Positions 250 through 22,996 are shown, counted from the stretch's first letter. The stretch is 29,740 nt of DNA from Thermoplasmatota archaeon (GCA_965234725.1 CBDDUX010000072.1:1-29740); one strand, 5' to 3'. The notes: generated by a model from the letters alone, not told the origin. Numbers and translations are program-made.

Positions 250-544
250 TTTTTTCTATCACTCTTGATCATCCCTCTTGAAGGCATTTCAGAGAAATTT
301 TTTCATTATCAGTGTCCTTTTTGATAGTTTTGAGTATGTTTTCAAACCCCGATCTACAAAATTTGGGGGTAGTTTTACTACACCATTACCATAGTTATAC
401 GACATTATAGTGTTAGAACACGATCGGATTGTGAATACTGGATTGATATAGAGAGATATGTTGGTATGATAATTACAGGAATATAATTTTATGATGAAGT
501 CCGAATTAGACCAAAATGTTTGGTGGGCCAGGCCGAGTCCGGAT
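250..544 (+). repeat. Composite repeat copy 1: arm A1 (about 250-350, upstream hairpin absent) plus arm B (351-535)
   Basis: Aligns along its length with about 22665-22945; arm B also matches 5180-5320; core AAACCCC at 344-350. Confidence 0.95.
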
Positions 545-581
545 CAAGTAATGAATCTATTTTTTCATTGATGGAATCTGA

Positions 582-1232
582 TCAACAATATCCGGTTAGT
601 ATCTCTTTCATGATCCTGATCTCGGCTTTTCTCAAATGCTCAACGAGCGTTGGTTTACTGATACTGACCTTTTCTGATAACTGAGTGCTGTTGATCTTCC
701 TTGGATACTCATAGTATCCATATCTGTCTGCTGTGAGAAGTATATCTCTTTGTTTCTCCGTCAATATCGATAGAATATCCTGTTTCCGGTAGGTTGCCTT
801 CTGGAATGATACATTCACGACCTTACCCAGATGTTCGTTGATCAAGTCGATGAATTTGTTCAAATTCTCATTATCCCCGATGCAACTCAAGGTGATCTTA
901 TCCTCAGTGATAATATTTGGTTTAGTAGTGATCAGGTCCAAGTCCTTGAAGAATTCTAGAGTGTTTTCAGGATCAAGTTCCTTAGCAATACAGATGTGTT
1001 TGTTTCCATGGGATCCTAGAACATTCAAGATCTCGATTGTCCCGATGGATCTTATATCATCTATCGATATGCCAGCTCTCGTGATAATCTCGATCAGGTC
1101 CACCGAAATGAATTCTTCCCAGTCATTCCTCAAATCATCCAGTATCTCATAGGACACTATCTTTTCAAATATGGGCCTCTGAATTTCCTTGAACTTCTCA
1201 TATGGTTCGTATTCCAGGGTCATCTTTCTCAT
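582..1232 (-). CDS. Bacterio-opsin activator-type (HTH_10) transcriptional regulator
   Basis: C-terminal LTEKQRDIL...GYYEYPRKI...LS..VSISKPTLVEHLRKAE is the HTH_10 signature; start moved to ATG 1232 (MRKMTLEY) from the ORF-track start at 1289. Confidence 0.85.
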   Translation of the reverse strand: MRKMTLEYEPYEKFKEIQRPIFEKIVSYEILDDLRNDWEEFISVDLIEIITRAGISIDDIRSIGTIEILNVLGSHGNKHICIAKELDPENTLEFFKDLDLITTKPNIITEDKITLSCIGDNENLNKFIDLINEHLGKVVNVSFQKATYRKQDILSILTEKQRDILLTADRYGYYEYPRKINSTQLSEKVSISKPTLVEHLRKAEIRIMKEILTGYC

Positions 1233-1358
1233 GTTATCAAAAGCAGATCGGCTACTGGATATTAATAATGCCATACATGAATGGCTCAATTTCCTAATAT
1301 TTCACCCGCCATAGACCTTCAGAGACCAATAGGATAATCCCAAAAACAGGTGAAAAAA

Positions 1359-2108
1359 ATGGACAAGATAAGGAATATCGATGGTGAGTGTTCAACCGGT
1401 AATGATGGAACGAATGATAAAGAGATTCCCAACTTGAGAAAGAACATGATAATTGCGGGTTGTCTTTATCTCACATTCATATTATTTTCATTCGTTGTAG
1501 ACAATTTTGCGGTCTTTGTAATGAAAGATGCTGATACCGTGATCGATAGAATAATTGAAAATGATTGGCAATTCACCTTCGGACTGATCAGTAACTTACT
1601 CTCGGCTCTTTTCTTCCTTCTGGCAGCCTGGGCTCTATATGCGTTATTGAAACCGGTCAATAAGAATCTCGCTTTGTCGTTTCTCATACTAAATTTGGTT
1701 GGTGTCGTCATCCAATGTGTGGCAGTGCATGAACTATTTGGTGCAGTACAACTTCTGAATGGGGCCGAATACCTGAATGTGATTCAGGCTGAACAACTCC
1801 ATGCCCAAGCATTGTTCCATATCAACATGTATGAAAATGGATTCATGATCGCCCAGTTGTTCTTTGGTTCCTGGCTCCTCCCTCTAGGATATCTGGTCTA
1901 CAAATCCACCTTTCTCCCAAAATGGCTCGGTATATTGCTGATGGTCGACTTCATTGCTATAGTGGGATGGTTCTTCCTTTTCTTCCTTTTCCCGAGTAAC
2001 GAAGTGATAATTGGACTCTGTCTTACAGTTAGCCTCATCGCGGAACTGGCACTCGGAGGTTTGCTTATAGTGAAAGGTATCAAGATGAAAAGTTCGATAA
2101 ATTTATAG
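1359..2108 (+). CDS. DUF4386 family membrane protein
   Basis: Multiple hydrophobic helices; IAGCLYL, LYALLKPVNKNLAL and FFGSWLLPLGYLVYKSTFLPKWLG motifs; AGGTGA RBS before ATG 1359. Confidence 0.85.
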   Translation: MDKIRNIDGECSTGNDGTNDKEIPNLRKNMIIAGCLYLTFILFSFVVDNFAVFVMKDADTVIDRIIENDWQFTFGLISNLLSALFFLLAAWALYALLKPVNKNLALSFLILNLVGVVIQCVAVHELFGAVQLLNGAEYLNVIQAEQLHAQALFHINMYENGFMIAQLFFGSWLLPLGYLVYKSTFLPKWLGILLMVDFIAIVGWFFLFFLFPSNEVIIGLCLTVSLIAELALGGLLIVKGIKMKSSINL

Positions 2109-2129
2109 TAGGCCTGGCCGAGTCAGGAT
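2100..2129 (+). repeat. Isolated degenerate copy of the arm-B terminal sequence
   Basis: 2106-2129 TAGTAGGCCTGGCCGAGTCAGGAT matches 521-544 TGGTGGGCCAGGCCGAGTCCGGAT at 20/24 positions. Confidence 0.7.
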
Positions 2130-3046
2130 GATATCTTATCCTTGAGCAATTTCTCTCTCCAAGTGTCCTGCATCCATCCATCTTTGAGTACTGAGGATTG
2201 AACATTCTTGATACCATCACAATCCTTGATTGCTTCCATAAGCTCATTATATTTCTTAATGGAAGGGGACCAAGCATAACTTGAGATAAGTCCGGGGACA
2301 TTGCTTAGAGTAGTGATGACGAAAAGTGATCCGCTGAATTTTTCATATAATTCATCACGGATCTTCTTCTGATCAACACCTTCTTCTAAGATTACGGCGA
2401 GCATAGCGGTAAGACCGGATGCATTCCCGGGGCGCCAATCGATACTGAAATCAATCGCTCCATTCTCTATCAACCGATCAAGATGCCGCTTCACTGTTCG
2501 TGCTGATGCATCACATTTCTCAGCAATATCTCCGATAGGCAATCGCGCATCCTCATAGAGTGCATGAATGATCTGAAAATCGAGTCGGGTCAGCTCTGAT
2601 GGACCTTTGTATCGAGTATTCAGGACCTTCTCACCGAATTTTACTTGAGAATCCAAAAGTACATTCGGATTCGGGATCTCGATTTTCTTTCTCAGATATT
2701 CGACCAGGGAGTCCAGGTCCTTGATATCCCGGATGATGCATTCCAGGAAGAAATGAGGTTGTCCTTCGCCGATAAATACTGAATGCACCAGATCGTTTTT
2801 CCTTAGTCCTTTTACTACATCGTCCGGTTTGCCCTGGGAGATGCCTTCCACAAGCACTCTAATAGCATGAAGATATCCTATCGACAGTGAGGTTTTAAAA
2901 CAATTGATTAGTCCTTCATCTTTTAGTATCTGTATACGGCGATGTGTGGCCTGAATGGAAATATTCAATCTGTCTGAAAGCTCACGAATAGGGGTCCTTG
3001 AGTTGGTGAAGAGCATCTGGCATAATCGAATGTCGGTCTCGTCCAT
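2123..3046 (-). CDS. Lrp/AsnC family regulator with two tandem HTH-plus-effector units
   Basis: MDETDIRLCQMLFTNSRTPIRELS and LTRLDFQIIHALYEDARLPIGDIAEK are two AsnC-type HTH starts. Confidence 0.85.
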   Translation of the reverse strand: MDETDIRLCQMLFTNSRTPIRELSDRLNISIQATHRRIQILKDEGLINCFKTSLSIGYLHAIRVLVEGISQGKPDDVVKGLRKNDLVHSVFIGEGQPHFFLECIIRDIKDLDSLVEYLRKKIEIPNPNVLLDSQVKFGEKVLNTRYKGPSELTRLDFQIIHALYEDARLPIGDIAEKCDASARTVKRHLDRLIENGAIDFSIDWRPGNASGLTAMLAVILEEGVDQKKIRDELYEKFSGSLFVITTLSNVPGLISSYAWSPSIKKYNELMEAIKDCDGIKNVQSSVLKDGWMQDTWREKLLKDKISS

Positions 3047-3082
3047 GGTAGAGAAATGAATGATGATATTCTTATTTGTAAA

Positions 3083-3454
3083 TTATCTTGGGATATTCTC
3101 TTCCATCAATGAGATCAGGAATTCCAATTCATCCTTTATCTTGCCAGATGTGACCTTGCATTCCGCAAAGATCCATCCACCTTCCTCGCTTGTCAAGTAA
3201 TATCCCCTGTCAGTAAGAATACCTGCAATGTCCATGACATGCTTAATTCGAGAGGGATCAACCGGTCTATTCCCCTCTAACAACCGAACAAGCAGTTCCA
3301 TGGAGAAGTATATCATGCTGTTTTCTTCGATCCTTGCAACGAGCCCGATCTTGAACGTATCTCCTCTGGCAACCACAACATACCCCTCGCCATCATCCGA
3401 GGATCTAGCTACTTCGGTCAGTTTCTCGACATTGATATCCGGATTCTTTCCCAT
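3083..3454 (-). CDS. Hypothetical protein (123 aa)
   Basis: Closely packed in a co-oriented run, protein-like composition, no recognised motif. Confidence 0.7.
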   Translation of the reverse strand: MGKNPDINVEKLTEVARSSDDGEGYVVVARGDTFKIGLVARIEENSMIYFSMELLVRLLEGNRPVDPSRIKHVMDIAGILTDRGYYLTSEEGGWIFAECKVTSGKIKDELEFLISLMEENIPR

Positions 3455-3470
3455 ATCAAGCTCTCCATGC

Positions 3471-3998
3471 CTACTCGACCTTTATTTTATGAATCTCCTT
3501 AACTGCCTTTCCTGTCAGGTTCTGAATATCCTGCTCATTCAGTCGATATGCTGAAGTGTCCTGTCTGGTTGGTTTAGGATCGGACGGTAACAGATCAGCT
3601 ATGTGAAGATCGATCACTGAAGCTGGTTTCTTTCCGATTCTTTTGGTCAGTTCATCGGAAAGTTTTGGATTCGGACCAAGGGCTCCTCCGCTTATCGAGA
3701 TGAAAGCATATTGCTTGATATGGTCCTTGAGTTCCTTGAAGCAAGCTCGAAGAGGCGATGCAACCTGCCCCATCCATACGGGTCCAACGAAGATTATCAA
3801 TCCATTTGTATCCAGATCGTCAATCGATTCGTTGATCTTCGGTGTTCTATTAAATATTACATCTATCGCGATCCTTCCAATGGTTCTCTTCTTCGGTTCA
3901 GTGATCTTGATATGCTCCGCTCCAAGATCAGCAGCAATGCTTTTTGCCAGACCATCGTTGTTGCCTGTCAACGAGTATGATATCACAAATTTCTTCAT
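3471..3998 (-). CDS. Flavodoxin-like protein
   Basis: N-terminal YSLTGNN phosphate-binding loop and IIFVGPVWMG; GGAGG RBS. Confidence 0.85.
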   Translation of the reverse strand: MKKFVISYSLTGNNDGLAKSIAADLGAEHIKITEPKKRTIGRIAIDVIFNRTPKINESIDDLDTNGLIIFVGPVWMGQVASPLRACFKELKDHIKQYAFISISGGALGPNPKLSDELTKRIGKKPASVIDLHIADLLPSDPKPTRQDTSAYRLNEQDIQNLTGKAVKEIHKIKVE

Positions 3999-4016
3999 TT
4001 TTCTCCCTCCTTTTAA

Positions 4017-4784
4017 TCATCTGCTAGCAGCCATTCTTACTGCTGCAAAGTCGAAGATCTTTCCCATCATTTTCTTGATCGGATTCATTCTGACCGGATA
4101 GTAGTAATCCGATTCGAACCATCCTTCCCTTTCAAAGTATGAAAAATCTCGATATTCATCATTCAGTATCAATCGAGCACTAGTTCTGGACATCCTGAAT
4201 ATCATCAACTTGAACAGAGTGGGGGACGGGTATTCCTTCTTGACCAATTGAGAAAAAAACTTACTGCTATGTTTGTCAAGGGCTGTATCAATCTTTCTCT
4301 GTCCTTTTTCTGTCATGGGTTCGAGTGTTGTAAGAACAGAACCCCTTACAACATTGAAACCGAGCCTGTCACCGACGAAGCTGAGATACTTGACAATATC
4401 CTTTCCTCCCATCATTCCCTGTGTCACAATGCATGTGAATGCTTTTCCAAAGAAAGCAGGTCGATGTGAGTAGAAGCTCAACCTGTCAATTAATAATTTC
4501 ATGAGGGCTGATTCATGGAAGAAGTAGTTGGGAGATGCAAACACAATGCCATCGGATCCCTCAATTTTCTCAATGAGTATATCCCTATCATCCTTAAGTG
4601 GGCATGATTTCTCATTTTTTTCCATGCAGATCTTGCACCCCTTGCAGGATTTCAGATCATAATCGCTGAGTTGTACTATCTCATAATCTACACCGCCTTT
4701 CTTCTGCAGATTTTCCATGAATTGCACAGAAGCATCATATGTATGATTCTTCTGAGCGCTTCCGACGAAAGCGGTCACCTTCAT
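4017..4784 (-). CDS. Iron-sulfur flavoprotein / NADPH-dependent FMN reductase family protein
   Basis: MKVTAFVGS start, CKGCKIC...C cluster motif, DGIVFASPNY...MKLLIDRL; the ORF-track extension to 5096 runs through non-coding repeat DNA. Confidence 0.85.
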   Translation of the reverse strand: MKVTAFVGSAQKNHTYDASVQFMENLQKKGGVDYEIVQLSDYDLKSCKGCKICMEKNEKSCPLKDDRDILIEKIEGSDGIVFASPNYFFHESALMKLLIDRLSFYSHRPAFFGKAFTCIVTQGMMGGKDIVKYLSFVGDRLGFNVVRGSVLTTLEPMTEKGQRKIDTALDKHSSKFFSQLVKKEYPSPTLFKLMIFRMSRTSARLILNDEYRDFSYFEREGWFESDYYYPVRMNPIKKMMGKIFDFAAVRMAASR

Positions 4785-5034
4785 TTTCTTTCCCTTGATT
4801 TGGATTTTAATCACCTTGGATTGTTTGTAGGCATCTGTTGCCTCTGAAAAATCCGATGTGGAAGAGTATAATAATGGCATGTTCACCATGGATTTGAAGA
4901 ATGGACACACAATATCCTCCGATTTGGACGATCTTTCATCCTCTCGTTTGATAAATCGGACAAAATACTTTCGTGAAAAATTGGCCAGTCCTGTATTTTG
5001 TAGGTTCTGATAATTCACGTTGTAAAATAATTGG

Positions 5035-5075
5035 AGAAGCCCCTTCCGACGCTTTGAAAGGGGCTTCTTTTTTCT
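5035..5075 (+). terminator. GC-rich hairpin plus T-tract at the start of arm A2 (terminator-like)
   Basis: AGAAGCCCCTT...AAGGGGCTTCT followed by TTTTTCT; repeated at 14802-14840. Confidence 0.5.
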
Positions 5076-5360
5076 CTTGGTCCGGACCGCTTCCATCCGT
5101 CATCCGCTCGGAAATCTTTTCTCGAAAAGGGGTTTTTCGGGGCATTTTCCAGGTTATTTGACTTAACTAGATAAACCCCATCTACAAAATTTGGGGGTTG
5201 TTTTACGACACCACGACATAGTTACACGACACAATAGGGTTAGAACACGACAGCATGATTTGCACTGGATCTTTGATGAGAGAAAGATAAATCGGTATGA
5301 TATTTAAGTGGAACATAATATCGATACATCTGTAATGATGGTGACTTCGCTACGATTAAT
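5035..5360 (+). repeat. Composite repeat copy 2: arm A2 (5035-5179) plus diverged arm B (5180-about 5345)
   Basis: Left part matches 14802-14945; right part matches 352-485 and 22762-22897; core AAACCCC at 5173-5179. Confidence 0.95.
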
Positions 5361-5621: not shown

Positions 5622-7049
5622 ATGGAAATACAGTATGTCGGTGAGATCGAGTATCCGGACGGATATACGGGAGATCATATTCTCGATTTCGACAATTTCA
5701 GCCCCAACGAGATGGACCGGATCCTCTATCATCCGTTCAATGAGGATTGTCCTTTTCACCTGGGCGAGGACCTGGGTGATCTTGATGATGTACCTCTGTT
5801 GAACCACCTGATGATCTATTTGGAATATATGAAAGAAAACGCGCCCCTGAAACTGACCCAGAAAGGGAATCTACCGCTCTCTTTCTGCAGATATCTGGCC
5901 GATAGGGGATTGGTGGAGGGAAGGATCTTGTCCGACCTTCATCTCAATTCAGAAGAAGATATCACATATATGACATTCATGAAACTTATAACCCGGAAAA
6001 TGGGGTTGGTCTCGAAAAGGTACAACAGATTCTCGTTGTCGGGAAAGGGGAAGAAGTTCCTGAAATCGGACTATGCCGAAAGGTACCGGATCCTTTTCAA
6101 ACACATGACAACCGGTTTCAACTGGGGGTATTTCGACCGGTATCCTCATAGCTGGATTGTACAAGGAGGGTTTGCCTTCTCGATCTTTCTCTTTCAAAAA
6201 TACGGAGAGGAGAAGAGACCTCCCGGGTTCTATTCCGACAGATTCAGGATAGCTTTTCCCAACCTGTATCGGGATTTCGACGGCCGGGATGATGATCCAA
6301 TAAGGGCATATGAGAGAGCCTACCTCATCAGGGTGATAGAGAGGTTCATGTTCAGAATGGGTCTTGTCGAGGTAGAATACGATCCTCGAAACAGATATGA
6401 ACCGGTTTCCGTGCGGAAGAATCCACTCATCGACAGAGTGATCGTCTGGGATCGTGATGTATTCGATTTCGACAAGGAAGGATATATCCTAAAGAAAAAA
6501 GAGAAAATGAAAAAAAGAATGGAGATGGAAAGAAAGAAAAAACTGAATTCAAAGTGCGGAAGAAAAGTTCTATCGAGGACGGAAGAATGGAAATCGAAGC
6601 TCTACACCTTGAAAGTATATCTGATCCAGGGTCCTCTTCCAGAAGACTTCAACGAGGAGGTGGTTTCGAGAACGATACAGATCAGGGGTAACCAGACCCT
6701 TGAGGACCTCCATCATGTGATCTTCAAGGCGTTTGACAGATGGGAGGAACACATGTATGAATTTCTGCTCGGAGAGGGTCCTTTCGACAGATCGGCGGTT
6801 TATTCACTTACGTCGGGGTCAGACCCGGAACTAGATGACTCTCTGGGAAGTGTGAAGGATACGACCATCGATTCTCTGGGGCTTGAAGAGGGAAGAGATT
6901 TCGGTTACCGGTTCGATTTCGGTGATGAATGGCTACATCAGATCGACGTTGTCGGGACCGATGAGAACGAATCGAGTGAAAAATATCCGAGGATAATCGA
7001 AATGACCGGAAAGAGCCCCCCGCAATATCCCAATCCTGATGAGGAATGA
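5622..7049 (+). CDS. Plasmid pRiA4b ORF-3 family domain protein with a long uncharacterised N-terminal domain
   Basis: C-terminal RTIQIRGNQTLEDLHHVIFKAFDRWEEHMYEF...YRFDFGDEWLHQI...YPRII....GKSPPQYP. Confidence 0.85.
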   Translation: MEIQYVGEIEYPDGYTGDHILDFDNFSPNEMDRILYHPFNEDCPFHLGEDLGDLDDVPLLNHLMIYLEYMKENAPLKLTQKGNLPLSFCRYLADRGLVEGRILSDLHLNSEEDITYMTFMKLITRKMGLVSKRYNRFSLSGKGKKFLKSDYAERYRILFKHMTTGFNWGYFDRYPHSWIVQGGFAFSIFLFQKYGEEKRPPGFYSDRFRIAFPNLYRDFDGRDDDPIRAYERAYLIRVIERFMFRMGLVEVEYDPRNRYEPVSVRKNPLIDRVIVWDRDVFDFDKEGYILKKKEKMKKRMEMERKKKLNSKCGRKVLSRTEEWKSKLYTLKVYLIQGPLPEDFNEEVVSRTIQIRGNQTLEDLHHVIFKAFDRWEEHMYEFLLGEGPFDRSAVYSLTSGSDPELDDSLGSVKDTTIDSLGLEEGRDFGYRFDFGDEWLHQIDVVGTDENESSEKYPRIIEMTGKSPPQYPNPDEE

Positions 7050-7101
7050 TTTTTCACGATATCCGGCAGATATAATATTCATCTCCTCGATACAATATCT
7101 G

Positions 7102-8673
7102 GTGCAGACCAACATCTACGATTTTCTGAAAAATCAGAAAAAGATCGAACAGAAGTTCACCGCAGAAGATGGCTACATATCTCACCCTCTGGTCAAGGAG
7201 AGATCGATACTTGCGAAGGATTTCCAGCTCAACATCGCTTCAAGCGCACTGGAGAGTTCCACGCTGGTGGTCCTTCCAACAGGTATGGGCAAGACCATAA
7301 TTGCCATCCTGGTATCTGCAGAGATATTATCTAATGAAAGTGGAAAGATCCTCATGGTCTCGCCCACAAGACCTCTTACGGAACAGCATTTTCATTCGTT
7401 TCAGAGATTCCTCTCGATCGAAGGAATGGCGATGTTCTCAGGATCGATGAAACCGGCAAAGAGAGTGGAGGAATGGAAAAAAGCAAGGGTCGTCTTCTCG
7501 ACCCCCCAGACCATCAACAACGACCTGAACAAGGAGAGGTATGATCTTTCCGATGTGTCGCTCCTCATAGTCGATGAGGCTCACAGAAGTGTAGGTGATT
7601 ATGCATACACGGGGATATTATCTCATTATGATGGCCATGTTCTGGCATTGACCGCTTCACCAGGCGGAGACAGCAAGAAGATAATGGAAGTAATAGAGAA
7701 TCTGGATGTGGACAATATCGAGGTCAGAACCTCCGGGGATGATGATGTAAAGGATCATGTCAAGGTGATAGATATCGAATGGAGGAGGACCGAACTTCCC
7801 GAGGATATGAATGAAATAAAAGTCCTTGTGGATGACTTCCTGCAAGAAAGGGTCAGAAAGCTCCGAAAACTGGGATTTCTCAGAGATGCAAGACCCGGGA
7901 TGGTCTCCAAGAAGAAGCTTTTGAAGGCAAGGGACGAGATACTGAAGAAATACATCAGGAACAAAGGACTCATGTTCGGGTCGCTGCACAATCAGGCGCA
8001 GGCCGTTCTGGCCGATCACATGCTCGAACTTCTGGAGACCCAGGGGGTCGTTCAATGCAGAATGTACATCGACAGAATGAGAGAAAAAACAAAAAAATCG
8101 AAGGCGGAGAAGGGGTTCCTTAAGGATCCGAGGATTTCTGGATCCGTTGGCAGATTGGAGAGATTCGAAGGACCCTCTCATCCCAAATTGGACCTACTTG
8201 AGGATATTGTGAGGAGATCGGTTGAAAATGGTGAAACACTGATCATCTTCACCCAGATCAGGGACACCATACCTTTGATAATGGATAGATTGGATGGATT
8301 GAGGATCGAGAGATTCGTTGGGCAGGCTAAGGGCAAAGATGGAAGAGGATTGAAGCAGAAGGAGCAGAAGGAAATACTTGACCGATTCAGAAAACGGGAG
8401 TTCGATGTTCTCATCGCAACCTCGGTTGCGGAGGAGGGGATCGATATTCCCGATGTGGACCTGGTCCTGTTCTACGAACCCATCCCTTCGGAGATCAGGA
8501 CCATTCAGCGTAGGGGGAGGACCGGCAGGTCCTCCACTGGTAAGGTGATCATCCTGATCACGAGCGGAACCCGGGACGAAGCCTACTACTGGGCGGAAGG
8601 TTCGAGAGAGAAGAAGATGGGACGGATAATGTCATGGTTAAGCCATGCGGAAGGAGGAGCGAATAATGAGTGA
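7102..8673 (+). CDS. hef: Hef/FANCM-like SF2 DEAH helicase without the ERCC4 nuclease domain
   Basis: YISHPLVK, LPTGMGKT, DEAH, LTASPG, ATSVAEEGIDIP, QRRGRTGR, GTRDEAYYW; likely GTG start at 7102 after TATAAT at 7071 (ORF track starts at 7039). Confidence 0.9.
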   Translation: MQTNIYDFLKNQKKIEQKFTAEDGYISHPLVKERSILAKDFQLNIASSALESSTLVVLPTGMGKTIIAILVSAEILSNESGKILMVSPTRPLTEQHFHSFQRFLSIEGMAMFSGSMKPAKRVEEWKKARVVFSTPQTINNDLNKERYDLSDVSLLIVDEAHRSVGDYAYTGILSHYDGHVLALTASPGGDSKKIMEVIENLDVDNIEVRTSGDDDVKDHVKVIDIEWRRTELPEDMNEIKVLVDDFLQERVRKLRKLGFLRDARPGMVSKKKLLKARDEILKKYIRNKGLMFGSLHNQAQAVLADHMLELLETQGVVQCRMYIDRMREKTKKSKAEKGFLKDPRISGSVGRLERFEGPSHPKLDLLEDIVRRSVENGETLIIFTQIRDTIPLIMDRLDGLRIERFVGQAKGKDGRGLKQKEQKEILDRFRKREFDVLIATSVAEEGIDIPDVDLVLFYEPIPSEIRTIQRRGRTGRSSTGKVIILITSGTRDEAYYWAEGSREKKMGRIMSWLSHAEGGANNE

Positions 8674-8766
8674 TCCATATCGTGTGAATAATATTTTATC
8701 ACCTTTGCCATAACCGAAGAAAGTGGAACAAATATGATACTATGAAACATGCTGCGGTGATCGATC

Positions 8767-9603: not shown

Positions 9604-9676
9604 TTCCATCCTGAATCACAACACCATCTAATCAGTGCCGTCGTGATTTTTAAGTATCATGATAATATGGGAAAAG

Positions 9677-11611: not shown

Positions 11612-11650
11612 ACCGTCACCTCCTTGATCAAGGTTATCCTGGTATATTTC

Positions 11651-12937: not shown

Positions 12938-13249
12938 ATTCCTGATATCATTGAAGGTAGTTGGTTGTTTCCAACGCGTTGAAGTTTGTTTGGATCTCCC
13001 TGTTTCTCTTTTTCAGCTAATGGATCCTATAACTTCTCAACACTGTTGTATACGAGAGTATTGTACCACTTCTAAACCTGTATCGTCTCAAGGAGAGTTC
13101 AAATGAGGCCTCAAATGGGGCTCCCCCTGTCAAGACATTTTCGAGACCTCTGAGGACCAGTAAAAAGGCAAAAATCAAGGACCAGTTACCCCCCAGAAAA
13201 TCGAGGTAATCCTGCAGAATTAGTGGTAATGACAATATACTTTCCAGTA

Positions 13250-13277
13250 GTCTACTCTAAAGTAGACAGTTATAAAT
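13250..13277 (+). promoter_or_regulatory. Palindromic operator next to the TATA box of the ATPase gene
   Basis: GTCTACT-ctaa-AGTAGAC (13250-13267), then TTATAAAT (13270-13277), about 24 nt before ATG 13301. Confidence 0.6.
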
Positions 13278-13300
13278 ATCTATGATTCCTATTCAAAGAT

Positions 13301-14689: not shown

Positions 14690-14801
14690 TACATTCATGA
14701 ATTAATCCATGCTTCATCTTGAAACATCCTCCATAATATGGATGGTCACATGTGAAATCATCTTCTGTTACAATATGTTAAAGACTTTAAGAAAAAGTAG
14801 T

Positions 14802-14992
14802 GAAGCCCCTTCCGACGCATTAAAAGGGGCTTCTTTTTCTTCTTGGTCCGAATCTCTTCTTTCCATCATCCGCTTAGAAATCTTTTCTCGAAAAGGGGTT
14901 TTTCGGAGCATTTTCCAGATCATTTGACTTAACTAGATAAACCCCGTCCCCGACACTTATCATTCTATAATATTAGATATATTGTATATTAT
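14802..14992 (+). repeat. Composite repeat copy 3: arm A2 (14802-14945) plus arm C (14946-about 14992)
   Basis: Left part matches 5036-5179; right part GTCCCCGACACTT...TTAG.TAT..ATTG.ATATTAT matches 18124-18166. Confidence 0.95.
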
Positions 14993-14994
14993 TT

Positions 14995-15639
14995 TTAATG
15001 TTTATCTTTGTTTTGTCCTTGACACTTCCCTTTGAATAATAATATTGCTAATACTATGATCCAAATGAAGTAGGTATAAACATTGATCCTCTCGATCAAT
15101 CCCATATATTCTTCCCAATTTGCAATCACAATTGGACTCATTCCACCCGAAATTACAAGGATACCCACCGTGATGAATGTAAAGTTCCTGAACTTCTTTA
15201 AATTGTACTTCCTTTTCATTCCAATCCCGATCAATATCAGTGCTGGGAAGATCATAATCACTGATAATTCGATGAGAACAAGATGCATAGTACCTGGAAA
15301 GGTTGCCTCAGTTCCTACTGGATCCATTGGAAATATCGTTGTTGTTAATGTTGTGCAAATTGACATCACCAAAAGGAGTACGCCTCCAAGGAAGATCAGC
15401 TTGTTTTCTTTGAACTTGTGATTTGAAATGATGTTGATACCAAAAACGATCCCCATGAACGATGAGGAGACCAATATTAAGCTGAAAAGAAGTCTATGGT
15501 CAGATCCTGACTCGCTCAATTCGCTAATGGCATTTGAAACGAAATTGTACCCTGGATAAATGATATGACCTAGGATGTCTGCAAGAAGGTATGAGAGAGT
15601 GGAACCGATCCCTGCCAGGTAAAAATATTTATTATTCAT
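14995..15639 (-). CDS. DUF998 family membrane protein
   Basis: YPGYNFVSNAISELS, FPMDP, GTMH and GLIERI motifs; several transmembrane helices. Confidence 0.85.
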   Translation of the reverse strand: MNNKYFYLAGIGSTLSYLLADILGHIIYPGYNFVSNAISELSESGSDHRLLFSLILVSSSFMGIVFGINIISNHKFKENKLIFLGGVLLLVMSICTTLTTTIFPMDPVGTEATFPGTMHLVLIELSVIMIFPALILIGIGMKRKYNLKKFRNFTFITVGILVISGGMSPIVIANWEEYMGLIERINVYTYFIWIIVLAILLFKGKCQGQNKDKH

Positions 15640-15663
15640 GATTAACCTCTTTTATGAAATATA

Positions 15664-15996
15664 TCATTTCAATTGGCTAAGTATCTTTTGAAAATTCTTG
15701 TAGGGTAGAGAGAGGTGTCCTTCATTTTCCATGAACTTCGATATCAGGGGGCTAATCAAGTAAAGTTCTTTTTTCTTGAATGTTGATAAACCCACCCCAG
15801 GTCTATCGATCGCTATCAACCTGACTCCAACTTTTTCCGATATCTCACCTGCCTTTAACATGATTGGATTTAACCTGCTTCCGGGGAATCCATGGAAGTA
15901 GAGAATTGGGAATCCCTTCGGCTCACAGTACTCTGCATATCCGACTTTTCTTCCCGACTCAAGATCTATGACCTTGTTCTGTTTTTCATTTCCCAT
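15664..15996 (-). pseudogene. Alpha/beta hydrolase remnant (frameshift, nonsense codon, large internal deletion)
   Basis: N-terminal YFHGFPGSR...DRPGVGLS is followed closely by C-terminal NEGHLSL; no GxSxG; the shifted frame reads KRTLLD*PPDIE. Confidence 0.8.
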
Positions 15997-16042
15997 TTCC
16001 CTACCTCAGGATTGAATGCCGACTGTTTTGCTAAACATTTTG

Positions 16043-16822
16043 TTACGGGGACTTAATTCCCTTGATCAACAAGTATCCGCAAAATCCGAATTCTCCAATG
16101 ATCTCGAGTCCATACCCAGGCAAAGTTATCACCTCGGGAGCCCCTGGTATGAGGAAGAACACAAATGTCTCCAATAGGAACCCGAAGCAAGCTAATACTA
16201 ACAGCACCCCGAATGCTTTTGGGAAGTTTTCTGACTTGTATACCAGGATCCCTAGAGGAAGAAGCCATAGTCCATGGAATATCGTCGCGATCATTACACC
16301 AGCCTCTCTGAATTCGAGGATAGTCATAACCACTGAATTTAACTGTTCCGTGCTGAATATTGATAGATGTTCGCCCCCATTCAGAAGAACCAGTGGAGCA
16401 ATATGAAAGAGCATATTGATCAGCATTACTGGAACACTGACCAGAACGAAAACCACCACCAAGGTAGCAAGGTTCTTATCGAGTTTGTTGAGTAATTTGT
16501 AGAACGCTAATGGTAATAGCATGAAACAAATGATCATAAGAATATCACTTGTGAAGCTTAACCGGTAAAGCCACTCTGAATCCTTGATATTATCTGCTGT
16601 AGCTGTAGCATCTCCAGAAACTATCAAATTCATTCGGATAACCTGTGCTATAATACCGAACACTATGAGGCCAAGATAGAGCAATCCTGCAATTCTTGCA
16701 ACCTTTCGCTTTGATTTCACCGTTTCGGCATTTGTGATCTCCCTTCCATCATTTTTCGATATAATTTCATTCTTCTTCACAATGCTCGGATTTGATTTTT
16801 TTTCAACCATATTCATCACCAT
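16043..16822 (-). CDS. DUF4386 family membrane protein
   Basis: ARIAGLLYL, GDATATADNI, IFHGLWLLPLGILVYKSENFPKAFG; clearly related to 1359-2108. Confidence 0.85.
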   Translation of the reverse strand: MVMNMVEKKSNPSIVKKNEIISKNDGREITNAETVKSKRKVARIAGLLYLGLIVFGIIAQVIRMNLIVSGDATATADNIKDSEWLYRLSFTSDILMIICFMLLPLAFYKLLNKLDKNLATLVVVFVLVSVPVMLINMLFHIAPLVLLNGGEHLSIFSTEQLNSVVMTILEFREAGVMIATIFHGLWLLPLGILVYKSENFPKAFGVLLVLACFGFLLETFVFFLIPGAPEVITLPGYGLEIIGEFGFCGYLLIKGIKSP

Positions 16823-16826
16823 AATT

Positions 16827-17435
16827 CTAAACGAGTTTCATACCCAATTTTTCGGCTCTTTGATAATAATCCTGTAGATCTTTATGCCATACATCACCCG
16901 CATATAGCTCCCCAACGGTATCTGCGTTCAATGAATCCTTGATTACTCCTTTGATCTGTGGAGTGGCCCAATTACAAAATCTCTTGAATTTCGAGGGGAT
17001 CATTCCTGAAACAGCAATTATAACAGCTTTTCTTTTCTTTTCAGATCTGGGAGCTGGACACCCCTTTACTATGACATAACTTTTTTCTGGTTTAGCAAAG
17101 GTCCAGCATATCCTTTCAAGGAATGTCATCATCAATGCTGAAGCATAACCCATATGGATCGGAGTTCCCATGATCAGAGCATCAGCTTTCAGAAGCTCCT
17201 CGTTGATTTTGTCCATATCATCTCTTATCACACATTTTGCCAGAGGCCCATCAGTATCACTTCTCCAACACGCAAGGCAATCCCTGCAATAATCGATCTT
17301 CTTCTCAGAGAGAAAGAACTTCTCTACAACGGCATTCTGATCTTTCTTCTTCACTCCTTCTATGGCCTTATCAATAAGTGTATCAGTATTCTTTCCTTTT
17401 CTAGGACTTCCAACAATTGCTACTACATTCATCAC
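16827..17435 (-). CDS. Iron-sulfur flavoprotein / FMN reductase family protein
   Basis: VAIVGSPRKGKNT, CRDCLAC...CVIRDDM, ADALIMGTP...MMTFLERI. Confidence 0.9.
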   Translation of the reverse strand: MMNVVAIVGSPRKGKNTDTLIDKAIEGVKKKDQNAVVEKFFLSEKKIDYCRDCLACWRSDTDGPLAKCVIRDDMDKINEELLKADALIMGTPIHMGYASALMMTFLERICWTFAKPEKSYVIVKGCPAPRSEKKRKAVIIAVSGMIPSKFKRFCNWATPQIKGVIKDSLNADTVGELYAGDVWHKDLQDYYQRAEKLGMKLV

Positions 17436-17926
17436 TATCCCTCCTCATTGAAATTGTTTTGAAGGTGATCAACCAACCGTTGTACGAATCCATTGAATTG
17501 TTGGATTTCTTTATCAGAATAGATCTCGAAGATCTTGAAGATCAAATATTCATGCTCTTCCAATCTTGATTCCCAGTAATCCCAGTTCTTTTGGGTGGTT
17601 CTCAACCTAAGTACTCTCTTATCATCCTCATCTTTCTCTATCGAAACGAATCCCCTACTTTGAAGTCTTGTTGCAGTTTCCTTAACACTTTGATGTGATG
17701 TGGAAGTTTTCTTGGAGACTTCTTTGATCGATGGTGCATGGTCGAAAGATTCTATTGAAGCAATTAGCAAGAACTGCTTTATTGTTAGTTCATCCTTCTT
17801 AAGCGCCCTATTGCTAATGCTCTCAAGCTTGAGACTTTGCAGGAATATGTTCGTGAATAGATGATCGATCTCATCGCGAACCTTTTTGTTTTCTCTTCTC
17901 TGAATAGGTTCGTTATTTTGTTGCAT
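17435..17926 (-). CDS. MarR family transcriptional regulator
   Basis: LTIKQFLLI...PSIKEVS...TSHQSVK...LQSRGFV....DEDDKRVLRL winged helix. Confidence 0.9.
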   Translation of the reverse strand: MQQNNEPIQRRENKKVRDEIDHLFTNIFLQSLKLESISNRALKKDELTIKQFLLIASIESFDHAPSIKEVSKKTSTSHQSVKETATRLQSRGFVSIEKDEDDKRVLRLRTTQKNWDYWESRLEEHEYLIFKIFEIYSDKEIQQFNGFVQRLVDHLQNNFNEEG

Positions 17927-17930
17927 AAGA

Positions 17931-17984
17931 ATAGGTAACTCCTTACCTATATTTATAACCTTCTAATAGGTAAGTCCTTACCCT
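17931..17984 (-). promoter_or_regulatory. MarR promoter: TATA box flanked by two palindromic operators
   Basis: ATAGGTAA-ctcc-TTACCTAT (17931-17950) and ATAGGTAA-gtcc-TTACCCT (17966-17984) flank minus-strand TTATAAAT (17951-17958). Confidence 0.8.
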
Positions 17985-18006
17985 TCAGTCATTATGGAAT
18001 AGATAT

Positions 18007-18190
18007 GGGCCTCCGAAGAGGCCCTTTTCCTCAATCCAGTTAAATCTCTCTCAAATGCATCCAGAAGAGATTCTTTCATTTTGGGGGTCGTTTTTGACAA
18101 TTTTGAGTACGTTTTCAAACCCTGTCCCCGACACTTTTCATAATTTAGGTATTTATTGCATATTATATGGCTATTTTTAGGTGTCGGGTT
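18007..18190 (+). repeat. Composite repeat copy 4: arm A1 (18007-18123) plus arm C (18124-about 18190)
   Basis: Hairpin GGGCCTC-cgaa-GAGGCCC; ATTCTTTCATTTT and TTTTGAGTACGTTTTCAAACCC match copies 1 and 5; GTCCCCGACACTT matches copy 3. Confidence 0.9.
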
Positions 18191-18210
18191 CCAATAACGT
18201 ACCCGTCACC

Positions 18211-21200
18211 TCATTCTTTTCCTTCTAGGTCCTCGATCTGTTCGTGAATGTAGTCTTTCAACTCAGAAGTTGTCAAACCTTCTTCATCCTTTTCAGGAGC
18301 AGGAATTCCATATAGATCCTCATAGGAAGGAGCACTGGATTCCTTTTCTTTTGCAAGAGCAGCTCTCTCTTCCTCTTCTTTCTTGCGAGCAGCTTCATCC
18401 ATTTTCTTCTTCATTTTGAATAATAAGAAGATTCCTAAAGCAAGAAGGATGATCACTACAGCAATGATGATTATCATGAACAATGACGATGATGAACTCT
18501 CAGCTTTACCCACTTCTATCTCGAAGGTTGCAGTATTTGTTTCAATTCCATCTGTAACCTCAACAGTAACTGTATGGAGCATCACCTGATTGTCTTTCGG
18601 TGTCCACCTTATCATGCCTGTCTCATCACTGATCGTCATCCCATCTGGAGCTTCAGCCAATGAATATCTCAAATTGGAAAGGTCCTCCGAATCCTGATCT
18701 GTGCAGGAGATCTTGAATTTGAAATTAGTTACAGCTGAGATCTTCTGGTCCTCAATGGTCTTGAATGTAGGTTTGTAGTTGACCCTGAATGACATCACTC
18801 CTGAAGTGCATAAACCGTCAGAACAACCGTCATTTGGGATAACTGTCCAGAAGTAAGTCTTTCCTGGATCCAGATCTGAGAGAGTGATGTTTGTACCATC
18901 GTATTCTTCTTCATAGATGGCCTCTTCTCGATATCCCTGGACATAAACCTCTGTTTGGTGAAGATATATGTCGTAAGTAATTGATTCTCCTTCAGGATCT
19001 ATACCTTCCCAGCTGAGAATAGCACCGGTAGAAGCTCCTTTTTCACCATCTCCAGGACCAATTAACTCCACCTCCGGGGGTTCAGAAGCTAATACTGTGA
19101 TAGTGAAGGTCCTATTGGTAAATGCAAGTCCATCCCAGGCTGATACAATTACTTCAAGTTTGAACGGAGCTTTATCGAAAATATGGATGTCAGCTGTCCA
19201 GTTTATTTGTCCGGTATCTTCATCAATTGTAATATCGGAATCCGGTGCGGATGAAACGGAATAATATGTTGTATCTCCATCATAATCCGTAGCGTTCACA
19301 TCGAAGAGATATGTTTTTCCATGAACAATATTTATATTTTCAGGAAAATCTACCCAGGCAGGTCTATCATTGACGTTTAGAACCTCCAATGTGAAGTTAT
19401 GGAAATCGAACTCATCCGAAAGGTCCCAGACTGAAACGTTTACGAAGTAGGACCCAACATCCATTGGTCCTGGATTTCCGGACAGTGTTCCCATTTCATA
19501 ATCGATTGAAAGGAAGCCAGCATCGGTATGGAGTTTCCATTTGATCTCATCTCCGGAATCGATTTCAAGAGCTTGATAATTTCTGAGGAATGGATCGTCT
19601 TGATACACTGACATGGTGTCATTTGTAATGATTACTGGAGGGTCGTTAACATCTAATACCTTGATATCGAACTGTCTTGAATCCCAACCCTCATTTCCGT
19701 CATGTACAGATACAGTGACTGTTACCGTTCCTACATCTTCATTTGTAGGTGATCCCTTCAGAATACCGGAGTGAGAATCCATTGTGAGCCATTCAGCATT
19801 CGAGGAGAGGTAATAAGTCACATTGCCTTGCCCATCATCATCACATTTGTAATCTGTCTCGTAATACTCCCCTTGATTGATCTCAGTGATGTCAGTTCCA
19901 AAAAGGTTCGGGTTGGTATTCGAGACAAATATCCTGAACTTGTGAGATGAGAAATGTCCTTCTGTATCTGTCAGGTTCAATTCAACGGTCGTCAGTCCTA
20001 CCTCTGTATTATCTGGTGTCCCGTATAGTTCCTTTGTTCCTTGGTCGAACTGGAGCCAATCCATGTCGGTCCTTAATGTCCAGGTTGGATTAGTCACCCA
20101 TCCAAAGTTCCAGTATGCTTCTCGATATTCAATATCTTCATAAGCGGTTTTATTATCCTGGAAAGGTCGAATTTGGACTGGAGTATGAACTTTGAAAATA
20201 TCACTTTTTAATGGATTCCTCACGGAGGTTGCCGTGATGTTCTCGAACCAGAGCATACTAGTTGAAATATTCAGATTCCCAACATACAATCCCGTATTGA
20301 TCCCTGTCTCTCTGCAAACGATCAGCGGGGAGAAACTCAAGTTATTATCACTGGACAGGTTTAGGAATGCCTTATCCCGAAGAAGTGGATTAGCATCATC
20401 TCCTGTGATTGCGAAGTATGCAGTCTCTCCATAATCCAATATTTCAGTGGTAGTCGTCAGGCCTTCATCTTCATAGACCGTTACTGAACCCACAGTTGTT
20501 GGTCTGAAGGGATAGTCGATCACAATGTCGATATCGAATGATGGGCCCGCTTTGGGATAAATATTTGTAACGTCGAAATAAATAGATCTAGGTGGGATTA
20601 TGAACTGCCCACGATAGACACCAGTGTTCAATCCTGTCTCCCTCAATCTGATCTTACTCAATCCAATCGGACTGGATTGGTATGTGATATTGATAGTTGC
20701 CAAATCCTGATGTGTCGCATTTCCATCTTCGCCGGTTAATTCCAAGTAAAGTGTTTGTCCGATGTCAAATGTTCTGGATGGATTTGAATAAGGTTCAGTG
20801 TAGATCTCGAATGTATCTACCCTGGTTGGTTCGTAGTTTAACATCCCTGTCACGAAATAGATCTTTCCACCACCATTTCCTCCCTCATCATTGTTTCTGG
20901 CTCCAACAATTATGTCTTCCATTCCATCCCCGTTGATATCTCCTTGTATCTCCAAAGCAGTCCCAAATCTATCTCCTGGAAATTCTCCAACAATGGTACT
21001 ATCAGCAATCGAAATATTTGCATTTGTAGGCCACCCACTTGTTCTTCCGTTGATGATATATACCTTCCCACGGTTCTCTCCCTGATAGTCAAATTGATTG
21101 CTGCAGACTACGATCTCATCTAATCCATCTCCATCTATATCTTCCAGGAAGTCTATGTCTAGTCCCAAAGAATCTCGATCATCCTCACCTAAATAGGATG

Positions 21201-22383
21201 CATCTGCATTAGATAGTGAGGTATCCATTGACAACCCTGTTTCTTTCCCAAGGATCAAATAGAACTTCCCATCAAAATCCATCCCGGGTGAATCCCAAGA
21301 ATTTGCGCCGATCAGGATATCGTCATATCCATCTCCATTTACATCTCCTCCACCGGCCAATCCATTCCCAATATAATCGAGATATTGGGTATCTTCTTCA
21401 ACAAAAGAAGCATCGGCATTTGAAAGAGATGTTCCATAGGACCAACCAGATGATTTACCCAGTATCAAGTAAATCTCCCCCCTGTCAGGAACTCCCATGC
21501 CTTGGGATCCATATGGGGCACCGATCAAAAAATCACCATATCCATCACCGTTCACATCCCCAGCTGAAGCCATGTTGTTCCCCACTCTTTGACCCTGGCC
21601 AGTTTCTCTGACGAAGGAAGCATCAGCGGTATTAATTGGTGTATTTTGGGACCAAATATTCGATTTTCCCAGAAATAAAAATGCTTCTCCGTCCTGATAG
21701 GGGGCCCCGATGAGTATGTCATCATATCCATCATTGTTCACATCCCCTGCTCCTGCTACAGTTGATCCCAAACGGATGGCTGAACTTGGAACAAAAGTTG
21801 CATCTGCATTTGACAAACTAACATCCTTTGCCCAATTCTGGGTCGGCTTCCCAAGAATAAGGTAGACCTTTCCCCAATAACTATTGATATTGTAATCTCC
21901 GATCAAGATGTCATCATAACCATCGTCATTGACATCTCCAACTATCTCAACACTGCATCCTGCCATACCATCAGGATCTTCACCAATGAAGGATGCATCA
22001 GTATCTGAGACATTCAATCCGATATCAAGAGAACCACTTCCGAAATAGACGTAGATCTTACCACCATCTACTCCATCGTGATTGTAGCTTGGTAATCCTA
22101 TCACAAGATCGTCAAATCCATCTCCGTTCACATCACCAGAATTTGACATCTGAGGTGCTGTGTAGAATCCTCCCCCACTATTGCTCCCAATTCTACTTCC
22201 AGGAAAGCCTAGAAGTGATCCTTCGGCAAGATCACTGATGTTCTGGTTCAGATCTCCCCTACCATTGTGATTGAATTTCAGAGGAGAATTTACCCCTTTT
22301 AAATTACTTGAATAAACACCAGGTAAAGGTAGGATTAAAGTTAGCAACAATACTATTGCCCAAACTTGGATGGATTTTTTCAC
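18211..22383 (-). CDS. Membrane-anchored surface protein: FG-GAP (integrin-alpha-like) propeller plus cadherin/He_PIG-like Ig repeats
   Basis: Signal peptide after GTG 22383; seven GDVNGDGxDD-type repeats; Ig repeats (V.DVNDPP, GxLxGxP...DVG); C-terminal transmembrane helix and charged tail. Confidence 0.9.
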   Translation of the reverse strand: MKKSIQVWAIVLLLTLILPLPGVYSSNLKGVNSPLKFNHNGRGDLNQNISDLAEGSLLGFPGSRIGSNSGGGFYTAPQMSNSGDVNGDGFDDLVIGLPSYNHDGVDGGKIYVYFGSGSLDIGLNVSDTDASFIGEDPDGMAGCSVEIVGDVNDDGYDDILIGDYNINSYWGKVYLILGKPTQNWAKDVSLSNADATFVPSSAIRLGSTVAGAGDVNNDGYDDILIGAPYQDGEAFLFLGKSNIWSQNTPINTADASFVRETGQGQRVGNNMASAGDVNGDGYGDFLIGAPYGSQGMGVPDRGEIYLILGKSSGWSYGTSLSNADASFVEEDTQYLDYIGNGLAGGGDVNGDGYDDILIGANSWDSPGMDFDGKFYLILGKETGLSMDTSLSNADASYLGEDDRDSLGLDIDFLEDIDGDGLDEIVVCSNQFDYQGENRGKVYIINGRTSGWPTNANISIADSTIVGEFPGDRFGTALEIQGDINGDGMEDIIVGARNNDEGGNGGGKIYFVTGMLNYEPTRVDTFEIYTEPYSNPSRTFDIGQTLYLELTGEDGNATHQDLATINITYQSSPIGLSKIRLRETGLNTGVYRGQFIIPPRSIYFDVTNIYPKAGPSFDIDIVIDYPFRPTTVGSVTVYEDEGLTTTTEILDYGETAYFAITGDDANPLLRDKAFLNLSSDNNLSFSPLIVCRETGINTGLYVGNLNISTSMLWFENITATSVRNPLKSDIFKVHTPVQIRPFQDNKTAYEDIEYREAYWNFGWVTNPTWTLRTDMDWLQFDQGTKELYGTPDNTEVGLTTVELNLTDTEGHFSSHKFRIFVSNTNPNLFGTDITEINQGEYYETDYKCDDDGQGNVTYYLSSNAEWLTMDSHSGILKGSPTNEDVGTVTVTVSVHDGNEGWDSRQFDIKVLDVNDPPVIITNDTMSVYQDDPFLRNYQALEIDSGDEIKWKLHTDAGFLSIDYEMGTLSGNPGPMDVGSYFVNVSVWDLSDEFDFHNFTLEVLNVNDRPAWVDFPENINIVHGKTYLFDVNATDYDGDTTYYSVSSAPDSDITIDEDTGQINWTADIHIFDKAPFKLEVIVSAWDGLAFTNRTFTITVLASEPPEVELIGPGDGEKGASTGAILSWEGIDPEGESITYDIYLHQTEVYVQGYREEAIYEEEYDGTNITLSDLDPGKTYFWTVIPNDGCSDGLCTSGVMSFRVNYKPTFKTIEDQKISAVTNFKFKISCTDQDSEDLSNLRYSLAEAPDGMTISDETGMIRWTPKDNQVMLHTVTVEVTDGIETNTATFEIEVGKAESSSSSLFMIIIIAVVIILLALGIFLLFKMKKKMDEAARKKEEEERAALAKEKESSAPSYEDLYGIPAPEKDEEGLTTSELKDYIHEQIEDLEGKE

Positions 22384-22642
22384 TTCATTACCCCCTATTG
22401 GAAAACCAGGGCCCCCATTGCCCATCGATAAAGGAAAATGGAGAAATCTCAACCATTTCCTTACATCCAATAAATGCAATTCCGAATTATAACTGTTTCG
22501 TTTAATTTAATAGAAATAATGTATTATTGTTAATATAAATGTTGTTAGATGATAATTTATATGATTCATGGTTTATAAATCTCAACTCGCGTTAATATAG
22601 CTAAAAAGAATTTCTCCTGCTATTTCAGATTAAGGCTAGATG

Positions 22643-22945
22643 TAGGCCCTATAAGGGGTCCTATTCCTTTTGCTCCTGATCATCTCTCTGAAGGCATTTC
22701 AGAGAAATTCTTTCATTTTCGATATCATTTTTAACAGTTTTGAGGCTGTTTTCAAACCCCGATCTACCAAATTTGGGATAGTTTTACGACACCATTAACA
22801 TGGTTATTCGACACAATAGGGCTAGAACACGACAGGATTGTGAATACTGGACCAGATATGAATAGATATGTTGGTATGATAATTAAAGGAATATAATTCT
22901 GTGATGAAGCCTGAATTAGCCCAAAATGTTTGGTGGGCCAGGTCG
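22643..22945 (+). repeat. Composite repeat copy 5: arm A1 (22643-22760) plus arm B (22761-22945)
   Basis: Colinear with 250-535; starts with hairpin TAGGCCCT-ataa-GGGGTCCTA; core AAACCCC at 22754-22760; ends TGGTGGGCCAGGTCG. Confidence 0.95.
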
Positions 22946-22996
22946 TTCCTCCTCAAAGATCGTTATTCCTCAATTGTGATCATCTCGATTATTCAA

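Follow-up and report, generated by a model that had tools for sequence, protein, structure and literature searches.

Co-oriented two-arm intergenic repeats around an AAACCCY(G) core in a Thermoplasmatota archaeon: candidate sites of a recombination system that accumulates gene blocks

A 29,740-nt stretch of the genome of a Thermoplasmatota archaeon (GCA_965234725.1 CBDDUX010000072.1:1-29740; hereafter the window) carries five composite repeats, in each of which a left arm (A1 or A2) and a right arm (B or C) meet at a short AAACCCY(G) core. We favour, with about even confidence, the reading that these modules are attachment (att)-like sites used in site-specific recombination, through which gene blocks accumulate. 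A first-pass annotation of the window had taken them for recombination junctions of an integron-like cassette system. All five of its junction strings were recovered on the plus strand, and so were the arm pairs, i.e., A1 with B (344), A2 with B (5173), A2 with C (14939), A1 with C (18117) and again A1 with B (22754). As proposed, each composite lies in an intergenic gap that separates gene blocks (5/5; Table 1). The window has six gaps longer than about 250 nt, and five of them hold a composite; the exception is 12937-13301, a large, divergent intergenic gap without a module copy.

The arms are true repeats, 78-89% identical. A1 plus B of copies 1 and 5 (262-535 and 22673-22945) agree at 85.8% over 275 nt and the two A2 copies (5036-5182 and 14802-14948) at 89.1% over 147 nt, while A1 of copy 4 matches that of copy 1 (18044-18122 and 271-349) at 78.8% over 80 nt, the same figure being given for copy 5. 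The B arm of copy 2 is 77.9% identical to that of copy 1 (5173-5319 and 344-487) and 76.5% to that of copy 5, in both cases over 149 nt, and the starts of the C type (14939-14963 and 18117-18141; repeat family D11) share 92% of 25 nt. The repeat families of the window that cover the arms are D3, D4, D6, D8, and D11. The 7-mer AAACCCY alone is not enriched (nine found, 7.8 expected), and the significance lies in the arms; six of its matches are on the plus strand, five of which are the junctions.

A scan of 185,579 species-representative genomes with the A1 end as the pattern returned nine loci. Eight of these match over the searched pattern alone (about 20-30 nt) and were treated as chance matches. 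The one real relative, L003, is a 15.6-kb stretch from contig CAWEDU010000013.1 of an uncultured Thermoplasmatales metagenome-assembled genome (MAG). Its minus strand carries six complete left arms (two plain A1, three A1 with an internal insert of about 50 nt, and one A2), together with a seventh core at the very contig end and one C box without a left arm. Relative to the FG-GAP gene shared by the two stretches, all 11 complete copies are co-oriented (5/5 in the window and 6/6 in L003), despite the fact that the genes between them lie on both strands; the co-orientation noticed for five copies thus holds across two genomes. The L003 blocks between copies measure 0.85-2.1 kb and contain two AbiEii/AbiEi pairs, an antitoxin/ParE pair, a DUF2202 protein and family-less proteins of 431+158 aa and 344 aa. 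The 431-aa and 344-aa proteins look like secreted or membrane-anchored repeat proteins. As had been proposed, the repeats bound unrelated blocks, and the cargo in the two stretches taken together is of the kind usual for mobile cassettes (AbiE twice, ParE, PDC-S27, and surface proteins). New arm combinations could also come from chimeric joins made between repeats when a MAG is assembled, and the L003 contig does end exactly at a core, as assemblies tend to break at repeats. However, the window copies are too different from each other for mis-joins at the identities given above, and the same architecture is present in L003, an independent assembly; an assembly artefact is extremely unlikely.

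The FG-GAP/He_PIG gene (72.2% identity between the window and L003 over 2710 nt) made it possible to compare both ends of one block. On its 3' side, homology starts at ACCC(T/G)GTCCCCGACACT, and to the left of this point an A1 arm is present in the window and unrelated sequence in L003. On the 5' side of the gene, homology spans the A1 arm and ends after AAACCCCG, beyond which a B arm and then a 2144-aa gene follow in the window, and a C box and an AbiE pair in L003. Both testable boundaries (2/2) coincide with the same 8 nt within a module of about 300 nt, with different neighbours on either side. Between the two genomes the arms are also better conserved than the gene that they flank, i.e., 90.1% (this A1 arm), 89.0% and 86.5% versus 72.2%; the last of the arm values is from the right arm of composite 4, which is orthologous to L003 15310-15397 over 89 nt. 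The lost synteny means little alone, since it is expected anyway between genomes only 72% identical. The L003 orthologue (10131-15307, plus strand) is split into at least five overlapping open reading frames (ORFs), reflecting either decay frameshifts or assembly errors.

The first-pass annotation distinguished four arms, but these are not four independent families, and this part of it has to be revised. A1 can be aligned with A2, and judging from this alignment the two are diverged versions of one left arm, with a common plan of a GC-rich hairpin, a T run, about 100 nt and the core. The A-arm hairpins top the list when terminator-like sites in 4500-23200 are ranked, and their stems are kept between copies while the sequence varies. 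In A1 copies without the internal insert, runs of at least four T start at -12, -23, and -33/-34 from the junction (5/5 copies), with an additional run at -45 in 4/5, so that the T tracts are spaced one helical turn apart. The insert-bearing A1 copies are found on the minus strand of L003 at about 5885-6080, 2256-2445, and 3597-3780. The insert has its own small hairpin and resembles a partial duplication of a TTTGAG segment, and in one of these copies the core has decayed to AAACCTC and the C box is absent.

On the right-hand side, the C arm is a 12-nt box, GTCCCCGACACT, immediately 3' of the core; the sequence beyond it differs at almost every site and shows weak similarity at most. Boxes of the form (C/A/T)CGNCA(C/G/T) lie in the right arms on a 21-nt lattice counted from the junction, at +26, +47/48, and +68/69 in B arms and at +5 (the C box itself) in the C type. 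Extra boxes are present in C-type arms of L003, at +27 in L_5584 and at +47 and +69 in both L_7750 and L_9687. Five of the six extra boxes of C-type arms are within 1 nt of the B lattice, as compared with a mean of 0.09 in shuffled arms (0/20000 shuffles reached five; two of the C-type arms are mutually related). Among the 32 plus-strand CGACA motifs of the window, ten occur within the 4.5% of the sequence just right of the junctions, and from -20 to +250 nt of the junctions there is a single minus-strand TGTCG, located in a right arm. Because the boxes share one lattice, B and C are regarded as two versions of one right-arm architecture. The B arm has no +5 box; ATCTACMAAATTTGGG stands in its place, and base pairing is possible between the G run of this sequence and the run of C in the core. 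The first B box lines up with the C box if a 21-nt gap is allowed, and B was therefore considered as a simple insertion into the C box. However, no C box is found past the far end of B, and B is read as an arm without the +5 box.

Several lines of evidence led us to favour att-like sites: the co-orientation of the modules ignores gene direction, a fixed core is flanked by bent DNA on one side and by phased boxes on the other, the arms are conserved above the level of the genes, the cargo is of accessory or defence type, the composition differs block-wise (GC 0.514 vs 0.39-0.45), and blocks are bounded at the core in two genomes. Two further points in favour are a 180-nt unit of L003 (described below) that is set between direct repeats of core/C-box sequence and absent from the window, and the finding that the arms neither code for protein nor form a conserved RNA fold. 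Each composite would then be one protein-binding DNA module of about 250-330 bp, with a terminator-like outer left part (GC hairpin and T run), a left arm (about 100 nt) whose T tracts are in helical phase, an AAAYCCY(G) core and a right arm in which direct CGACAC-like boxes, four at most, stand at +5, +26, +47, and +68. A recombinase encoded elsewhere in the genome would act on these modules, and strand exchange at or adjoining the core would link a block's left arm to the right arm of the block that follows it. Through repeated rounds of insertion or exchange, a co-oriented array of unrelated blocks carrying defence, toxin-antitoxin, surface-protein and regulatory genes could be built up. 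The blocks might either excise and insert as circles, as in integrons, or be successive integrative elements that pile up at a regenerated site and later lose their integrases. It is possible, and we propose it tentatively, that Thermoplasmatota possess a gene-capture platform that is integron-like but unrelated to IntI/attC, in which a recombinase that recognises a two-arm site of about 300 bp (bent T-tract arm, AAAYCCYG core, 21-bp CGACAC lattice) would stack and exchange multi-gene blocks of defence, toxin-antitoxin and surface-protein genes in long co-oriented chromosomal arrays. No description of a system of this kind in Thermoplasmatota or other archaea was found in the main texts of the open-access papers and preprints searched.

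A number of results weigh against this reading. The blocks hold one to six genes in both orientations, unlike integron cassettes. No recombinase, transposase or Cas1 family was met among the ORFs scanned in the two stretches (29.7 + 15.6 kb; 21 window ORFs and 19 L003 ORFs), no Phage_integrase or integrase remnant in these 45 kb, and no IntI in the window or L003, stretches that include neither array end. NCBIfam and PHROGs searches were run on 14 mostly unannotated proteins, and together with PADLOC they gave no hidden recombinase among the unknown proteins. As no recombinase was seen, recombination is something that we infer. Of the integron-like proposal, co-orientation, cargo and core boundaries are retained, while the multi-gene, both-strand blocks do not fit. 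Furthermore, the A1-end pattern was met in one relevant contig among all species representatives, so that the family is possibly narrow, and only one orthologous block, at 72% identity, was comparable. The 180-nt L003 unit described below ends in GAGGACCC without an A arm. At the core, no inverted repeat of at least 7 nt occurs in any of four junction regions (0 in 4/4); the sole inverted pair of these regions is an AT-rich palindrome 30 nt off in one of them. Finally, a 17-nt variant block and the 50-nt insert within A1 are seen in all four combinations, and the supposedly orthologous arms of the FG-GAP block (composite 5 and L_5584) differ in the 17-nt block. Homologous recombination or gene conversion therefore also reshuffles the repeats, and the first-pass view that homology switches at the core is correct for both FG-GAP boundaries but not as a statement that arms switch there only.

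The main rival is a mosaic intergenic regulatory or architectural repeat. Such a repeat would place a terminator, a bent stretch and a series of operators bound by one DNA-binding protein between transcription units, and homologous recombination and gene conversion would reshuffle its sub-modules without the help of a dedicated recombinase. The elements are built of modules and confined to intergenic DNA, the A arms hold the strongest terminator-like hairpins of the ranked region, phased boxes with T tracts would suit any nucleoprotein complex including a repressor array, the four-gamete combinations in A1 point to recombination away from the core, and the failure to find a recombinase in either stretch is as expected. 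The rival accounts for hairpin, boxes and internal mosaicism, but neither for the orientation rule, kept in 11/11 complete copies regardless of the direction of neighbouring genes, nor for the two core-exact boundaries on the same 8 nt. The large divergent gap without a copy and the cargo, all of it accessory or defence-type, are also not in concordance with it. We regard it as a genuine contender, although a rather doubtful one. The closest bacterial examples are the bacterial interspersed mosaic elements (BIMEs) of E. coli and pneumococcal BOX, mosaic intergenic repeats that contain hairpins and are bound by architectural proteins. Like these, the modules are short non-coding intergenic repeats of variously combined sub-modules. 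To our knowledge, BIMEs and BOX are not reported to be strictly co-oriented or to mark exchangeable gene blocks. Compared with interspersed repeats of the BIME, BOX or miniature inverted-repeat transposable element type, the modules also differ in being co-oriented throughout and in that block homology ends at the core, and the terminal inverted repeats expected of a miniature inverted-repeat transposable element were not found.

The modules could alternatively be the ends of non-autonomous transposable units lying head to tail, with the left arm as one end and the multi-box right arm as the other, moved by a DDE or a single-strand HUH enzyme. In L003 (15383-15577, minus strand), a 180-nt unit without a gene is found between two perfect 15-nt direct repeats, CCCGTCCCCGACACT, whereas the orthologous place in the window (18121) has a single copy of CCCGTCCCCGACACT and no such unit. 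This insert with its 15-nt duplication, the strict strand bias of the modules (which the strand preference of HUH enzymes would explain), the hairpins on the outside of the left arm, the inverted copies of TTCAAAYCCC in two units termed D, and the direct boxes about 21 nt apart beside an end, which remind us of multi-site transposon ends, are all consistent with transposition. On the other hand, the left arms lack an inverted box motif, the only minus-strand TGTCG near the junctions being in a right arm. In addition, no terminal inverted repeats and no transposase were found in either stretch, and the large blocks have no flanking target duplication. Transposon ends are thus considered unlikely. 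Casposons are known in archaea and make a 14-15 bp target duplication, to which the perfect 15-nt repeat around the 180-nt unit may be compared; however, no terminal inverted repeat, Cas1 or polymerase was found in the two stretches and the large blocks are not flanked by such duplications alone. The 180-nt unit also holds several strong hairpins and an inverted copy of TTCAAACCCC, and a shorter relative of it lies 3' of an A1 copy at about 1194-1274 of L003.

A classical integron cassette array with divergent attC sites is very improbable. Clusters of attC sites without integrase (CALINs) have been reported in Archaea, where they make up most of the integrons described (PMC9668308), although the string 'Thermoplasm' is absent from the main text of that paper. 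CALINs would agree with co-oriented sites between unrelated blocks and with toxin-antitoxin cargo. The first-pass annotation had stated that attC structure is absent, and the folds concur: neither strand forms a long imperfect hairpin, and eight folds (four sites, both strands) gave local stems only, with z from -2.26 to +1.40. The ends lack attC motifs; the minus-strand core reads GGGGTTTGAAAAC, not GTTRRRY, and no R''/R' partner occurs at the outer edge of the left arm. The modules further resemble integron arrays in that a site is shared out between its neighbours, its left part moving along with the left block and a short conserved piece with the right one, and in that toxin-antitoxin or defence cargo is common. 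They differ from them in size and build, being two-armed and 250-330 bp long with T tracts and a lattice, whereas attC is a foldable palindrome of 55-140 nt, and in the content of the blocks, for an integron cassette usually has one promoterless co-oriented ORF and the blocks have one to six genes on both strands. No IntI was found, as noted above.

The Xer/dif layout was likewise correctly said to be missing, as the four junction regions contain no inverted repeat at the core and no 11-6-11 imperfect palindrome of the kind that makes up a 28-bp dif site. Xer/dif (pdif) modules are small gene modules, often toxin-antitoxin, that are bounded by sites and have no recombinase of their own. In these respects the present modules are similar; however, their sites are co-oriented and not alternating. 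The attP of lambda type is about 250 bp long, with a short core between arms, arm-type sites and bent DNA. The modules are comparable in size, in a core flanked by arms, in repeated boxes in one arm and in bendable AT-rich DNA in the other, but have no inverted core-type sites and carry boxes in one arm only.

Tandem integration at a single att site must also be compared. Tandem and integrase-less integrated elements have been described in archaea (PMC8371274), and in the tycheposon islands of Prochlorococcus both successive integrations and scattered partial tRNAs are seen (bioRxiv 10.1101/2020.12.28.424599). As in such arrays, co-oriented direct repeats flank every block, many blocks are integrase-less, and internal junctions would be hybrids, with the left arm from one element and the right arm from its successor. 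Unlike in them, the module repeat is not a detectable tRNA fragment, each junction retains a complete two-arm site, blocks can be as small as 0.85-2 kb, and the 45 kb hold no integrase remnant. The TTCAAAYCCC of the modules presumably resembles a tRNA T loop and stem. However, ARAGORN found no tRNA in the window or L003, and Rfam gave no tRNA match even for the stretch cut at the putative T loop, so that a tRNA fragment as the core has no support from either.

Other possible identities of the arms were rejected. A small protein on the minus strand of A1 (..SGTGFENxLK..) is contradicted by the frame shift that the 50-nt insert causes in three copies, by stops, and by the lack of a start in copies of the B type, and the reading frames of A2 differ from copy to copy. 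To trace the family in other genomes through spurious ORF calls, a protein profile built from three A2-frame translations was used to score 17 candidates, none of which passed. For a structured RNA, the consensus fold of eight A1 copies reached -1.2 kcal/mol with 0/12 compensatory pairs, and 1/36 and 2/15 pairs were compensatory in the B arm; no Rfam family matched the modules at E <= 1 except for one chance-level match. A phage or plasmid origin was not supported, since blastn of composite 5 against phage and plasmid collections gave no match in either.

How defence and surface-protein islands of archaea are assembled and turned over is poorly understood, and we know of no archaeal cassette-style systems beyond tRNA-targeting integrases and a few attC-type integrons. 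If the modules are recombination sites, they would represent a new site architecture and point to a recombinase that acts on it, and the left arm, core and lattice would provide a sequence handle for exchangeable blocks in uncultured Thermoplasmatota; the question could be tested with reads from the source community. If they are regulatory or architectural, they would be a rare archaeal counterpart of the bacterial mosaic intergenic elements, with an unusually strict orientation.

Table 1. Positions of the composite repeats and gene blocks in the window
Feature	Position	Strand	Remarks
Composite 1, left arm A1	250..343	+	T7 run 250-256, no GC hairpin; 253-349 78% to L003 A1 copy
Composite 1, core AAACCCCG	344..351	+	
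Composite 1, B-type right arm	352..535	+	degenerate boxes, CTACAC at about +26 and CGACAT at +49; families D6, D8
Composite 2, left arm A2	5026..5172	+	GC hairpin 5036-5067, then T run; family D4
Composite 2, core AAACCCC	5173..5179	+	trailing G missing
Composite 2, B-type right arm	5180..5319	+	boxes at +26, +34, +47, +68
Composite 3, left arm A2	14792..14938	+	hairpin 14802-14833, then T run; family D4
Composite 3, core AAACCCCG	14939..14946	+	
Composite 3, C-type right arm	14946..15026	+	C box 14946-14957; second box GTCCTTGACACT 15015-15026 (+69)
Composite 4, left arm A1	18005..18116	+	hairpin 18007-18024, then T run; 89.0% to L003 (reverse complement) 9539-9620
Composite 4, core AAACCCTG	18117..18124	+	
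Composite 4, C-type right arm	18124..18210	+	C box 18124-18135; inverted copy at about 18180; CCGTCAC box at +80
Composite 5, left arm A1	22640..22753	+	hairpin 22643-22663; 90.1% to L003 (reverse complement) 5504-5584
Composite 5, core AAACCCCG	22754..22761	+	
Composite 5, B-type right arm	22762..22945	+	boxes at +26, +48, +69
Block 1	582..4784		HTH_10 regulator, DUF4386, double Lrp/AsnC regulator, two unknown genes, FMN reductase
Block 2	5622..14689		PRiA4_ORF3-domain protein, DEAD/ResIII helicase, SprT-like, two TPR proteins, ATPase_2/DUF234
Block 3	14995..17926	-	DUF998, hydrolase fragment, DUF4386, FMN reductase, MarR
Block 4	18211..22479	-	1422-aa FG-GAP/He_PIG surface protein; only block common with L003
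Block 5	22997..29431	-	2144-aa Fascin/NHL/TSP3 protein

The 2144-aa gene has a GC content of 0.515 and a GC content at third codon positions of 0.647, whereas the remaining genes of the window are at 0.38-0.48; either a foreign origin or a strong amino-acid bias is suggested by this difference. This ORF also has a CarboxypepD_reg match and many internal repeats spaced 66 nt. Block 2 is a possible defence cluster: its ATPase_2/DUF234 protein matches PADLOC PDC-S27 at 2e-52, its DEAD/ResIII helicase is PbeA-like in PADLOC, and of its two TPR proteins, one has a SEC-C motif and the N-terminus of the other weakly matches DpdE and PDC-S62.

A 359-aa ORF listed at 4017-5096 (minus strand) overlaps the A2 arm of composite 2. 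Because the FMN-reductase domain and the alignment with its paralogue begin at M105, translation probably starts near 4784 and the first 104 codons do not code for protein, which would place the A2 arm upstream of the true FMN-reductase start. The 110-aa ORF at 15664-15996 (minus strand), with a weak match to the first 46 positions of an alpha/beta-hydrolase profile, is probably a gene fragment. DUF4386 and FMN-reductase genes occur in block 1 as well as in block 3, at 1350-2108 (plus strand), 4017-4784, 16043-16822, and 16827-17435 (all minus strand), with a winged-helix regulator alongside in both blocks. These are distant paralogues, 36% and 26% identical, and a recent duplication of the blocks was rejected on this ground; given such distance, the co-occurrence of DUF4386, FMN reductase and winged-helix regulator may represent a recurring functional module.

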